DNA of 13,698 nt from the IMG/VR virus record IMGVR_UViG_2526164602_000022, positions 1-13,698 of that record; one strand, given 5' to 3'. The position numbers were made by a program, and so were the translations under genes. The stretch comes from a virus. Taxonomy: Duplodnaviria > Heunggongvirae > Uroviricota > Caudoviricetes. Every line of letters begins with the position of its first letter. Within the stretch, counting starts at the first letter, position 1. This document shows positions 1,024-2,961 of the stretch, one piece after another. The notes beneath the pieces were generated by a model that searched no databases, was not told the origin of the DNA, and saw nothing but the letters and a program-made list of their open reading frames with translations.

Positions 1024-2961
1024 TCATTCTCCTGTTCTGCCTGTATCACTGCCCACTTCATCCAGCCCCTTAACATCCTGCCACGGCCCGTCACCAAACC
1101 TGACCTGCAAATGCTGAAAAAAACCCTGAACCCGTGTGGCATCTTTGGGGGCAAGAAAGGTCAGTCCGGTGATGAGTGCGCCATCTGTATCCGGGAACCA
1201 GCCATTGCTGTTTGTCTCAATAATGTTTCCCGGCCCCAGACGAAAACGGATTTGTGTCTCCCCCGGGTCGCCCTTCGGTCCCTGAGGTCCGGTCGCCCCC
1301 ACCGGGCCTGCCGCACCTGTTTCTCCTTTCGGTCCCTGTGGGCCTGCCGGGCCTGCCGCACCGGTATCTCCCTTTGGACCCTGTGGACCTGCATTTCCCG
1401 TCAGACCGGTCTCTCCCCGCTCTCCCCTGTCACCTTTCGGCCCCTGCGGGCCTGCCGGACCAGCATCACCTGCCGGTCCCCGTTCGCCGGTTGCCCCGAC
1501 AGGGCCGGTGTCACCGCGCTCTCCCTTATCACCCTTCGGCCCAGCCGGACCTGCTGGCCCCGTGTCCCCTTTATCTCCTTTCGGACCGGGAACACCACCT
1601 CCTGCTGCAGCCTCTTCTGCCTTTGTTTTCGCTTCATTTGCCACATCCATTGCCGCTTTCACCGCTTTCGGGGTGGCAGCCTTCGTTTCATCATCACTGT
1701 CCGTTGCGCTGCTTAACTGCACAATTCCCTTCTGTGCCGTCGTTGCATCAGCCACATTTGCAGCGCTGCCTGCCGGACCTGGCTCTCCACGAGGTCCCTG
1801 AGGTCCGGTCTCTCCTCGTTCGCCTCTCGGACCTGCAGGACCAGGTTCACCTCGGGGGCCAGTCTCCCCACGCTCACCTCGTGCTCCCATCGGTCCCTGT
1901 GGTCCGGCTTCTCCTCGTTCGCCTTTAGGACCTTGCGGGCCTGCAGGACCTCCCGGATCACCTTTCTCGCCTTTTGGCCCCATATCCCCCTGGTCCCCTT
2001 TAGGCCCCCGCTCTCCGGTATCCCCCTTCAGGCCTGGTATTCCCTGCGGTCCTCGCTCCCCCTGTTCGCCCTTCTCACCACGCGGACCAGCAGGCCCTAC
2101 AGCCCCCTGAGCACCAACGTCACCACGCTCACCTTTCGGCCCTGCGGGCCCTTGAGGGCCCACTGGACCTGTTTCGCCTTTAGGACCGACATCCCCCTTC
2201 GGACCAGTTTCTCCCTGAGGCCCCCGGGGCCCCCGTGCATTCTCAGCCATACGTCTGGCCTCTTCAGCACTGACAGTGGCAGCCTCTGCCCGCTTAAGGA
2301 TCTCTCCGGCGCTCTCCTGCGCCAGCCTGGCCTTTTCAGCATGCTGTCTGGCTTTTTCTGCATCAGCTCCGGCGGCTTTTTCAGACTCTCCGGCACGGGT
2401 CGAGCTTTCCTCTGCATTCCCCGCTGCTGTGACTGCACGGGTCGCAGCCTCAGTGGCATCAGTCGCTTTTTGTCCGGCTTCAGCCGCCCTGCTGGTTGCC
2501 GTCTTTGCACTGTCAGATGCACTCTTCGCACTGGCTGCTGCACTTTCTTTTGACTGTGTGGCCTGAGTGTTTTTTGTCGCCGTGTCTTCATTCAGGCGAC
2601 GAATAGTGGCAAGGTCATCAGCCACATTATTCTGTATCTGCCGGAAATCTGTCAGCAGTTCTCCGGGTATGCTAACCTCAACAAGACTGCGGCGTAACAG
2701 CATATTGAGCGTCACCGTACTTTCGGTCCCCTCAATACGCACACGTCCGTAGACAGCAGTCTTCCCTTTCACCGTCACCGAAACCGCATACTCCCCCGGA
2801 TCCATCGTCATTCCGTAATATCCACCTTCACGGGTCACTGCCGACGCACTGGTGCCGCTGAGCGCATCCGGTGAAACTGTCAGCGCCGTCAGGGTAATAT
2901 TTGCTCCTGATATCGCCTCACCATCAGGAGATTTCAGCGTCCCCGAAACAACAACACTCAC
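1024..2961 (-). CDS. phage side tail fiber protein (645 aa) with an Ala-rich coiled-coil region, two collagen-like Gly-X-Y blocks, a conserved tail-fibre repeat motif and a distinct C-terminal domain
   Basis: GTG start at 2959-2961 with GGAGG 6 nt upstream; the start overlaps the upstream gene stop (GTGA). Residues about 140-240 are Ala/Ser/Thr/Glu-rich. Residues about 243-398 and 455-568 are near-perfect G-X-Y repeats. Between them lies [27 protein letters not shown], a motif I recall from lambda Stf / P2 H-type tail fibers. The C-terminal ~75 residues are non-repetitive. Confidence 0.85.
1258..1599 (-). repeat. collagen-like Gly-X-Y coding repeat block 2 (about 114 codons) inside the tail fiber gene
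   Basis: Translation residues 455-568 are GXY triplets ([32 protein letters not shown]...). Confidence 0.8.
1768..2235 (-). repeat. collagen-like Gly-X-Y coding repeat block 1 (about 156 codons) inside the tail fiber gene
   Basis: Translation residues 243-398 are continuous GXY triplets ([23 protein letters not shown]...); the DNA is GC-rich and low-complexity. Confidence 0.8.

Follow-up and report, generated by a model that had tools for sequence, protein, structure and literature searches.

The closest described relatives of the protein considered here are the collagen-like phage proteins EPclB (Z1483 or ECs1228; L0121 of phage 933W; ORF67 of Sakai prophage Sp5) and EPclA, a side tail fibre of lambdoid siphoviruses (for example Sakai Sp10 ECs1992, 437 aa). 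EPclB has been tabulated as a protein of 645 residues with a PCoil of 109 and Col blocks of 157 and 114 residues (Ghosh et al., 2012). Because recombinant EPclB aggregated, the biophysical work was performed mainly on its paralogue EPclA, for which CD, AUC and EM established a trimer, a triple helix and an α-helical coiled coil. The collagen domain of EPclA melts at 42 °C, and its PfC and PCoil domains act as trimerization modules, with PfC found experimentally to renucleate the triple helix. Deletion of ORF67 from Sp5 abolished plaque formation and lysogenization, DNA packaging being retained and the heads appearing intact, and an anti-ORF67 antibody labelled the end of the tail in immuno-EM (Mondal et al., 2016). 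A 2026 cryo-EM preprint on phi24B describes gp61 as six lateral trimeric fibres bound to the adaptor, with the gp61 N-domains docked on the 12-mer adaptor gp62.

The DNA analysed here, referred to as the window, is a stretch of 13,698 nucleotides (IMG/VR record IMGVR_UViG_2526164602_000022) that encodes a protein of this kind. The protein is already characterized: since the collagen character, domain layout, length variation, place on the virion and essential role of the fibre have all been published, no new biology of it is added. A modest addition made here is a catalogue of microhomology-bounded in-frame deletions and C-terminal swaps among near-identical relatives. Architecture, identity, length variation, module exchange and a switch from Sp5 to Sp10 sequence were computed in this work; trimer and triple-helix formation, virion position and essentiality are taken from the papers.

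Gene organization and identity

The coordinates of the fibre reading frame proposed in an earlier sequence-only reading hold exactly (Table 1). That reading left the strand unstated; the gene lies on the minus strand, and a plus-strand reading of the same interval was rejected, its translation being riddled with stops. The start codon overlaps the stop codon of the upstream adaptor gene (GTGA) and is preceded by the Shine–Dalgarno sequence GGAGGTGGAG. Terminase, portal, scaffold, N4-gp56-type capsid and SU10-type adaptor genes are found directly upstream, and the placement of the fibre immediately after the tail adaptor in a terminase–portal–capsid–adaptor operon is that of the 933W/Sp5/phi24B type. 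The fibre gene is 99.6% identical in nucleotide sequence to that of deposited Stx phages, while a wider query (700–3000) is 98.9% identical to 933W L0121/Sp5. At the protein level 643 of the 645 residues match ECs1228, and the two differences, H586N and D604A, both fall in PfC. The protein, named EPclB, very probably serves a short-tailed prophage of the Stx type (Sp5/933W/phi24B) as its trimeric lateral tail fibre. A cell-surface adhesin of the Scl/BclA kind was rejected on the basis of the operon context and the published virion localization.

Table 1. Features of the window at and around the fibre gene (aa, amino acids of the fibre unless a protein length is given)
Feature	Position	Strand	Details
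Tail adaptor gene	2958..3608	minus	216 aa, SU10_adaptor E=5e-31
Tail-fibre CDS	1024..2961	minus	645 aa, GTG start at 2961, TGA at 1026-1024
N-terminal virion-attachment domain, PfN/CarboxypepD_reg-like	2572..2961	minus	aa 1-130
Ala/Ser/Glu-rich low-complexity segment, 'PCoil' trimeric coiled coil	2233..2571	minus	aa 131-243, from sequence
Col1	1762..2232	minus	aa 244-400, 157 aa, 52 triplets, one-residue break at aa 340 (codon 1942-1944)
Non-collagen linker with Phage_fiber_2 repeat (Pf2)	1597..1761	minus	aa 401-455
Col2	1255..1596	minus	aa 456-569, 114 aa, 38 triplets
Phage_fiber_C (PfC) domain	1027..1254	minus	aa 570-645
89-aa ORF, essentially free-standing PfC	753..1022	minus	Sp5 ORF68/Sp10 ECs1993 homologue
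Stem-loop and U run, intrinsic-terminator-like	711..741	minus	RNA fold -21.3 kcal/mol, z=-3.8
Crossover interval, Sp5 to Sp10	1280..1293	n/a	1280-12253 100% Sakai Sp5; 1-1293 100% Sakai Sp10 (nucleotide identity)
Spurious ORF	817-1716	plus	299 aa
Spurious ORF	1254-1928	plus	224 aa
Spurious ORF	1933-2553	plus	206 aa
Spurious ORF, out of frame	2097-2591	minus	164 aa

Downstream of the fibre gene the Sp5 tail genes ORF70, 71, 79 and 80 (nozzle, needle and other) are not present and nleG2-2 is found instead, so that the locus as assembled, missing these essential genes, could not build a tail. Eighteen contigs were found to encode the fibre, and the same protein does precede the Sp5 tail genes in two other contigs (L005 and L006).

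Domain structure

Pfam matches and a map of Gly-X-Y runs give the order PfN–PCoil–Col1–Pf2–Col2–PfC, in agreement both with the layout proposed from sequence alone and with that in the literature on EPclB. In the N-terminal domain, residues 5–86 match CarboxypepD_reg (PF13620) with 34.7 bits against a curated cut-off of 32.3, and a match to phage_tail_N (PF08400) falls below its cut-off. The N-terminus also matches a 94-residue PDB 'Tail fiber protein' chain (9e7m/9mgh; E=8e-4), which we take to resemble the N-terminus of lambda-type Stf. The linker between the collagen blocks carries a Phage_fiber_2 repeat (PF03406; residues 407–448, E=5e-18), corresponding to the KGIVQLSS...AATPKAVK motif, and matches residues 107–154 of phage Mu tail fibre protein S (PDB 5yvq).

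About 270 collagen-like residues had been claimed for this protein, and the count is 90 Gly-X-Y triplets, or 270 residues, in runs at residues 244–339 (32 triplets), 341–400 (20) and 456–569 (38). Proline occupies the X position in 40 of the 90 triplets, and acidic X and basic Y residues are common. Pfam Collagen (PF01391) matches in five stretches (E=4e-43; 145 bits against a cut-off of 27.2). The break in Col1 lies in the motif GDPGGPAG at residues 335–342, and the part of Col2 downstream of about 1542 is common to the side tail fibres of lambdoid phages (EPclA). The idea that the Gly-X-Y region arose through faulty sequencing or assembly, or is low-complexity DNA that does not code, is vanishingly improbable and has already been refuted: glycine recurs at every third position through 90 triplets of a single frame uninterrupted by stops, Sakai Sp5 matches the region at 100% identity, it is present in hundreds of independent phage and genome records, and published work shows the protein to be expressed and detected on virions.

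The collagen-coding stretch has a G+C content of 65%, compared with 52% for the whole window, and several frames there are almost stop-free. Long spurious antisense frames had been expected from the repeat. Four long spurious ORFs were found between 817 and 2591, three of them on the plus (antisense) strand, and they arise because collagen-coding DNA is poor in stops; a Pfam search with all four gave zero matches. Spurious ORFs of this kind are deposited in AP005153 as 'hypothetical proteins' b8–b10 and B15–B17.

The C-terminal domain, described from sequence alone as unrelated, proved on a domain search to belong to the curated family Phage_fiber_C (PF06820; residues 571–634, E=1e-35), with a paralogue of 33% identity in the next ORF. 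An AlphaFold2 model of the PfC monomer built from a 10-sequence alignment contains three long β-strands with a pLDDT of 78, the monomer of a trimerizing domain being of limited value, and a Foldseek comparison of this model with the PDB gave no match (best E=0.37). The adjacent 89-residue ORF begins with an ATG one base past the fibre stop codon (TGA-C-ATG) and matches PF06820 (E=8e-36, scored on the longer TTG-start ORF 753–1154) and PHROG 576. These are its only matches, and there is no Tfa-type chaperone gene downstream; Pfam likewise shows the Peptidase_S74 (PF13884) intramolecular chaperone to be absent from this fibre. The Sp5 homologue of the ORF, ORF68, is dispensable (Mondal et al., 2016). 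A programmed frameshift joining the fibre to this ORF was considered and rejected, there being no slippery site according to Mondal et al. and none at the TGA-C-ATG junction. The terminator-like stem-loop that follows was overlooked by a terminator pattern scan and was recovered by folding. Homology to Sp5 stops at 696, just past it.

Length variation and module exchange

The length of the fibre varies, as had been predicted. Among proteins at least 99% identical over the aligned N-terminal part, Col1 consists of 25, 33, 40, 41, 44, 46, 51, 52 or 53 triplets, and two more diverged relatives (70–74% identity) have 64 and 65. Deposited Stx phages have fibre genes of about 1839, 1896, 1938 and 2111 nt, and a 678-residue form was listed by Ghosh et al. 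(2012). At least eight distinct in-frame Col1 deletions are represented among the ≥99%-identical proteins, with a junction microhomology of 6–11 nt in the window DNA. The sequence-only reading had ascribed such instability to slippage and recombination in the repeat; the change in length is observed, but it looks like deletion between these microhomologies rather than classical tandem-repeat slippage. The collagen DNA is an imperfect repeat with 60–86% identity between copies. A clean tandem array was ruled out with Tandem Repeats Finder and a direct-repeat search, which returned a 45-nt period in two copies at 86% and a 41-nt family at 63–80%, and the rate of length change may for this reason be modest.

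Exchange of the C-terminal module, also anticipated, is equally apparent. The N-terminal 70% of the protein recurs with at least six kinds of C-terminus, including a Peptidase_S74 C-terminus in some relatives (P0008, P0019 and P0028). Fibres of lambdoid siphoviruses match only nucleotides 1390–1938 of the gene, which correspond to Col2 and the C-terminal domain, and breakpoints in deposited phages fall at gene nucleotides 1012, 1390 and 1440.

The switch from Sp5 to Sp10 sequence

The window changes from one Sakai prophage to another near the end of the collagen-coding DNA (Table 1), the Sp10 part comprising the 3′ end of the fibre gene, the 89-residue PF06820 ORF and nleG2-2. Relative to EPclB, 27 bases between 1279 and 700 are changed, in every case to the Sp10 allele. 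A 61-mer spanning the switch has no occurrence in 5,426 complete E. coli genomes, IMG/VR, GTDB representatives or JGI metagenomes.

It is somewhat probable that the assembler, and not a cell, joined 1–1293 to the Sp5 part. A contig could have left Sp5, entered the multi-copy Col2–PfC–ORF68 repeat, which is present in about ten copies per EHEC genome, and exited at the uspF/ompN flank of an Sp10-type prophage. Consistent with this route, the switch lies within 1280–1542, the sole near-identical stretch of the two fibre genes, the EPclB-to-nleG join is found in none of the 5,426 complete genomes, and J–Lom–EPclA precedes the uspF-side nleG cluster in every long contig among those listed. The same join is seen in 16 of 18 contigs from short-read drafts; these have a normal Bor/Rz left end unlike that of the window and different alleles at 1309 and 1294, and other draft contigs end inside or just past the fibre gene. 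Moreover, the two Sakai genes lie in direct orientation with 684 kb between them, so that a single crossover would delete the intervening DNA, presumably with lethal effect. Several observations are harder to reconcile with an error of assembly. The 61-mer pairs the Sp5 allele at 1294 with the Sp10 allele at 1279, only 15 nt away, a combination found in none of 4,082 copies from complete genomes, and a k-mer assembler needs matching reads to produce it. The window also spans a complete 1.3-kb IS629, which is rare in short-read contigs, and has a unique IS629–terS junction that cannot come from repeat collapse. Recombination of Sp5 with another prophage (Sp15) has in addition been shown experimentally.

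A real join between an Sp5-type phage genome and a resident Sp10-type lambdoid prophage, with the right crossover in the last collagen triplets, is plausible if short of probable. Its product would be a defective hybrid prophage at the Rac/ompN site, in which podovirus head and fibre genes stand beside nleG effector cargo. The 100% identity to both parents, the switch interval of only 14 nt and the uniqueness of the junction 61-mer are all consistent with such an event, as are the mosaic Sp5/Sp10 PfC bases seen in fibres that keep the Sp5 tail genes (L005 and L006) and in complete genomes (best match 99.5%), and the ready formation of Sp5 × Sp15 chimeric phages. However, a left crossover would also be required, where only IS629 and ISEc8 are visible, and every argument for an assembler origin counts against a real join. 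That a Stx-type podovirus head-and-fibre module was truly spliced to the nleG2-2-onward end of a lambdoid siphovirus prophage, making the window a real recombinant, is offered as a rather doubtful possibility. If true, it would be a natural case of Col2/PfC serving as a recombination linker between two virion types and of type III effector cargo becoming re-associated with a different phage chassis. As a caution, draft assemblies switch prophage across the Col2–PfC–ORF68 repeat, and the window is possibly among them.

Proposed assembly and the question of the receptor

Translation of the fibre may be coupled to that of the adaptor gene through the GTGA overlap. PfC and the Ala/Ser-rich coiled coil would then align three chains in register, and the two Gly-X-Y blocks could form collagen triple helices stabilized by proline at X and by acidic-X/basic-Y pairs rather than by hydroxyproline. 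The N-terminal β-domain would dock on the 12-mer adaptor ring, with six trimers around the nozzle and the small PfC knob held far off the tail. From textbook rises per residue, Col1 is estimated to measure about 45 nm, Col2 about 33 nm and the coil about 17 nm. We infer the ligand and the order of folding as well as these lengths. Fibre length could change when collagen DNA is deleted or duplicated in frame between short microhomologies, and the distal module might be swapped through homologous recombination within Pf2 and Col2/PfC, conserved stretches that also occur in the side fibres of lambdoid siphoviruses residing in the same genome.

The fibre probably touches the cell surface early and reversibly and is probably separate from the irreversible step triggered by BamA. 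The PfC knob might instead be the receptor-binding protein and recognize BamA (YaeT), which short-tailed Stx phages use as their receptor, as was guessed for ORF67 by Mondal et al. and supposed earlier for phi24B gp61; PfC lies, after all, at the distal end of an essential fibre. This assignment is unlikely. The phi24B preprint argues that a signal cannot pass along a flexible collagen shaft and favours a central needle with gp54/gp55, and it reports that the fibres of lambda_2B8, closely related in shaft and knob, fail to recognize BamA; phage 2B8 matches gene nucleotides 1390–1938 at 95.8%. The same knob is, moreover, found on about nine side fibres of siphoviruses in each EHEC genome. Phages with this fibre spread Shiga toxin genes, and variation in its length and tip bears on which bacteria can be approached.

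Comparison with known systems

EPclB is identical to the present protein in its length of 645 residues, in the order and lengths of its domains and in its place in the operon, and has the same G-X-P-G-G-P-X-G break and Col lengths (Ghosh et al., 2012, Table 2). The loci differ downstream, where nleG is found here and the Sp5 tail genes follow the EPclB gene. In phi24B gp61 the coiled coil begins at about residue 100, the collagen-like shaft spans residues 243–567 with a break at a short motif and the C-terminal domain spans residues 568–644; gp61 was equated with the present fibre from these described boundaries and from phi24B being a 933W-type phage.

The Sp10 EPclA (ECs1992) is identical over its last 172 residues, that is most of Col2 and PfC, and also has a PfN-type N-terminus, a PCoil and PfC followed by the same 89-residue PfC ORF. 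It differs in having a single collagen block and no Pf2 motif, in being encoded after J and Lom and in belonging to a long-tailed virion, and its N-terminal domain, though homologous, is divergent, the 9e7m chain of that type matching only weakly (see above). Protein S of phage Mu has the Phage_fiber_2 repeat in common with this fibre, and lambda Stf and Mu S share the PfN-type N-terminal domain according to the literature, but both are without collagen repeats and use a Tfa/U-type assembly chaperone. Streptococcus Scl1/2 and Bacillus BclA, the latter with a sequence match to the collagen part of this fibre, likewise have an unhydroxylated, charge-stabilized triple helix whose folding is nucleated by a globular trimerizing domain. 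They are, however, located on the cell surface or on spores and have other terminal domains, whereas this fibre is a virion protein encoded in a morphogenesis operon.

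Identity, architecture and setting of the fibre gene

A single long open reading frame (ORF) fills 1024–2961 on the minus strand and, by ORF calling and translation, encodes 645 residues; translation of the plus strand over the same interval is interrupted by stops. GGAGGTGGAG precedes the GTG start, which overlaps the TGA of the upstream 216-residue gene (GTGA). Three runs of Gly-X-Y (32 + 20 + 38) give 90 triplets or 270 residues, the first collagen block (Col1) being interrupted by one additional residue, aa 340. Proline occupies X in 40 of the 90 triplets, and acidic X and basic Y residues are abundant. 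A phage_tail_N match falls under the Pfam threshold. The sequence-only reading had described this protein accurately, and its estimate of about 270 collagen-like residues is borne out by the triplet count, but it left the strand unstated and called the C-terminal domain unrelated, whereas a Pfam search, a check it had proposed for the last 75 residues, assigns these to a curated family, PF06820 (Phage_fiber_C, PfC).

Positions 696–13566 match prophage Sp5, a Stx-type podovirus of Escherichia coli O157:H7 Sakai. The neighbouring genes correspond to the Sp5 late operon: small and large terminase, portal, a 335-residue head protein, a major capsid protein of the N4-gp56 type, several small proteins and a tail adaptor of the SU10 type. 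The fibre gene is 99.6% identical in nucleotide sequence to those of deposited Stx phages, and 700–3000 aligns over its full length at 98.9% nucleotide identity to 933W (L0121), VT2-Sakai and many other Stx1 and Stx2 phages. Two substitutions, H586N and D604A, distinguish the protein from the Sp5 fibre ECs1228. Elsewhere in the operon, the small terminase carries a short His/Asp-rich repeat, KIDHEIDHKTDHEIDHDISDEE. A mechanical ORF list lengthens the minus-strand genes at 3608–4279 and 4155–4643 upstream so that they overlap; their true starts are probably internal, since the Sakai annotation has shorter versions (564 and 462 nt).

Features of the window and of the fibre protein
Feature	Position	Strand	Details
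nleG-family type III effector gene	65–640	-	Pfam T3SS_NleG, E = 2e-46
89-residue PfC-only protein	753–1022	-	
Overlapping long ORF	817–1716	+	
Overlapping long ORF	1254–1928	+	
Overlapping long ORF	1933–2553	+	
Overlapping long ORF	2097–2591	-	
Fibre stop	1026–1024	-	TGA
Fibre start	2961	-	GTG
CarboxypepD_reg	aa 5–86		Pfam
Gly-X-Y run 1	aa 244–339		32 triplets
Gly-X-Y run 2	aa 341–400		20 triplets
Phage_fiber_2 (Pf2)	aa 407–448		Pfam, E = 5e-18
Gly-X-Y run 3	aa 456–569		38 triplets
Collagen	fibre		Pfam, E = 4e-43
Phage_fiber_C (PF06820)	aa 571–634		Pfam, E = 1e-35
Small terminase gene	11345–12151	-	
IS629/IS1203, complete	12254–13563	+	orfA 12308–12634, orfB 12631–13521
ISEc8 (IS66-family) transposase gene, 5' part	13567–13698		beyond IS629; not Sp5 DNA

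The window as a whole has 52% G+C and the collagen region 65%, with several frames nearly free of stops in the latter. None of the four long overlapping ORFs has a Pfam match, and they are regarded as by-products of the repeat, in agreement with the earlier expectation of spurious ORFs; such ORFs are listed as hypothetical proteins in one GenBank record (AP005153).

Length variation and module exchange

Searching a large protein collection recovered many sequences that share 97–99% identity with the fibre over their first 70%. Among relatives at least 99% identical, Col1 comprises 25, 33, 40, 41, 44, 46, 51, 52 or 53 triplets, and two more diverged relatives (70–74% identity) have 64 and 65, which supports the predicted changes in fibre length. 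Alignment to the query reveals eight distinct in-frame deletions: five of 1, 6, 8, 12 and 19 triplets, two different ones of 11 triplets, and one of 82 residues in which the Col1 interruption is lost as well; the gene spans about 1839, 1896, 1938 and 2111 nt among deposited Stx phages. The ends of every deletion share 6–11 nt of identity in the window's own DNA. The collagen DNA is no more than an imperfect repeat, and its length seems to change by recombination, or slippage, at short stretches of microhomology.

Exchange of the C-terminal module, also anticipated, is seen in at least six kinds of C-terminus behind the common N-terminal part. Besides PfC itself there are two PfC-like variants, with the endings ...GIGEV and ...EYFPL, as well as a chaperone domain (Peptidase_S74), a domain of the PF21882 type and others. 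Some phage-collection records match the gene only over nt 1–1012 or 1–1440, and in lambdoid siphoviruses including phage 2B8 the match is restricted to nt 1390–1938, the second collagen block (Col2) and PfC. Many relatives have a second Pf2 repeat, separated from the other by a non-collagen segment of about 140 residues; in four of them (784–845 residues; P0001, P0002, P0005 and P0008) this segment is KADGCLEKAKNGDD...HWRVDYSTKNKP. By comparison, the 645-residue fibre looks like the longer form after loss of what separates its two Pf2 repeats.

The C-terminal 75 residues are 33% identical to the downstream 89-residue protein. An AlphaFold2 monomer model of them has three long β-strands (pLDDT 78); Foldseek found no PDB match to this model, and no solved chain matches the domain by sequence. 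The 89-residue protein opens with a Cys/His-rich stretch, LCGCGKHDDCEH, which might bind metal, and differs from its Sp5 version at six residues, all of which equal the allele of Sp10, a lambdoid siphovirus prophage of Sakai.

The Sp5/Sp10 junction and the left end

Mismatch mapping gave no differences from Sakai Sp5 between 12253 and 1280, and 27 between 1279 and 700, Sp5 homology stopping at 696. Positions 1–1293 are identical to Sakai Sp10 (3' end of the side tail fibre gene ECs1992, ECs1993 and nleG2-2), the first departures being at 1294 and 1309. Because Sp5 identity ends at 1280 and Sp10 identity at 1293, the switch lies within 1280–1293, in the last collagen triplets. The nleG gene takes the place of the Sp5 tail genes behind the Stx-type fibre operon.

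At the other end, IS629 lies 103 nt from the small terminase gene, on its upstream side, and about 3.8 kb present in Sakai Sp5 (Bor, Rz, antirepressor, endolysin and holin) is absent there. This IS629–terminase junction occurs in no complete E. coli genome; an IS629/ISEc8 junction similar to that of the window is found in a few O157:H7 genomes.

The Sp5/Sp10 join could be biological or an assembly product, and we lean slightly towards the latter. An Sp5-type fibre followed by nleG occurs in no complete E. coli genome, and in all long contigs shown J, Lom and EPclA (the ECs1992 type) precede the uspF-side nleG cluster. The parent genes lie 684 kb apart in Sakai in direct orientation, so that a single crossover would delete the intervening region and would presumably be lethal. 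The same join is seen in 16 of the 18 short-read contigs encoding the exact fibre protein; at their left end these have the usual Bor/Rz genes, and at 1309 and 1294 they carry the Sp10 alleles. Set on the side of a real join, which is slightly less favoured, are a 61-mer across the switch, present in 0 of 4,082 copies from complete genomes and in none of three other collections, the passage of the window through an entire IS629 into a unique IS629–terS junction, and the known chimeras of Sp5 with another prophage.

Contigs L005 and L006 (= L023 and L024) encode an identical fibre protein followed by normal Sp5 tail genes. The DNA of their fibre 3' ends has patches of Sp10-type bases between Sp5-type bases (e.g. 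1206–912 in L005), which could reflect gene conversion among the prophage copies, or else an effect of consensus building from short reads. The draft contigs L026, L028 and L029 open precisely at the boundary of Rz and Bor, and one of them stops 13 nt past the fibre stop; assembly is thus shown to break off or go astray at the repeats around the fibre gene.

Functional implications and relation to known fibres

The best-supported reading is that the lateral fibres are trimers arranged with six-fold symmetry. The N-terminal β-domain would bind the adaptor, the chain register would be set by the coiled coil together with the PfC knob, two triple helices would form a long flexible shaft and the Pf2 segment may be a short non-collagen joint between them. 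Textbook values for the rise per residue, 0.286 nm in collagen and about 0.15 nm in a coiled coil, give an estimated shaft of roughly 45 nm (Col1), 33 nm (Col2) and 17 nm (coiled coil), shortening by about 0.86 nm for each triplet lost. Following a cryo-EM study of phage phi24B (bioRxiv, 2026), the most likely role of the knob would be an early reversible contact.

In phi24B, each of six lateral fibres is a gp61 trimer, attached to the 12-mer adaptor gp62 through two of its three N-terminal domains. A coiled coil begins at residue 100 and residues 243–567 form the collagen-like shaft; the small C-terminal domain (568–644) is argued to be an unlikely BamA binder (bioRxiv, 2026). Deletion of Sp5 ORF67 (= ECs1228) leaves DNA packaged and heads apparently intact but abolishes plaques and lysogens, anti-ORF67 antibody labels the tail end, and the adjoining ORF68, the 89-residue PfC-only protein, is non-essential (Mondal et al., 2016; PMC5155283). 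The architecture PfN-PCoil-Col-Pf2-Col-PfC (N-terminal domain, coiled coil, collagen blocks, Pf2 and PfC) was named EPclB by Ghosh et al. (2012; PMC3368898), who pointed out a conserved G-X-P-G-G-P-X-G interruption in its collagen and found that the collagen blocks vary among strains in steps of three residues. Their work on the paralogue EPclA showed that it forms trimers, that its triple helix is genuine and melts at 42 °C, that its Ala/Ser-rich coiled coil is trimeric, and that PfC acts as a trimerization domain able to renucleate the helix.

With architecture, essentiality and virion position thus published, the fibre is a known protein, documented in detail; the observation is confirmed and its earlier interpretation supported. 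Over its final 172 residues the fibre is identical to ECs1992, the side tail fibre of the siphovirus-type prophage Sp10, and the lengths tabulated for the EPclB protein Z1483/ECs1228 (645 residues, with a coiled coil of 109 and collagen of 157 + 114; PMC3368898) exactly equal those counted here.
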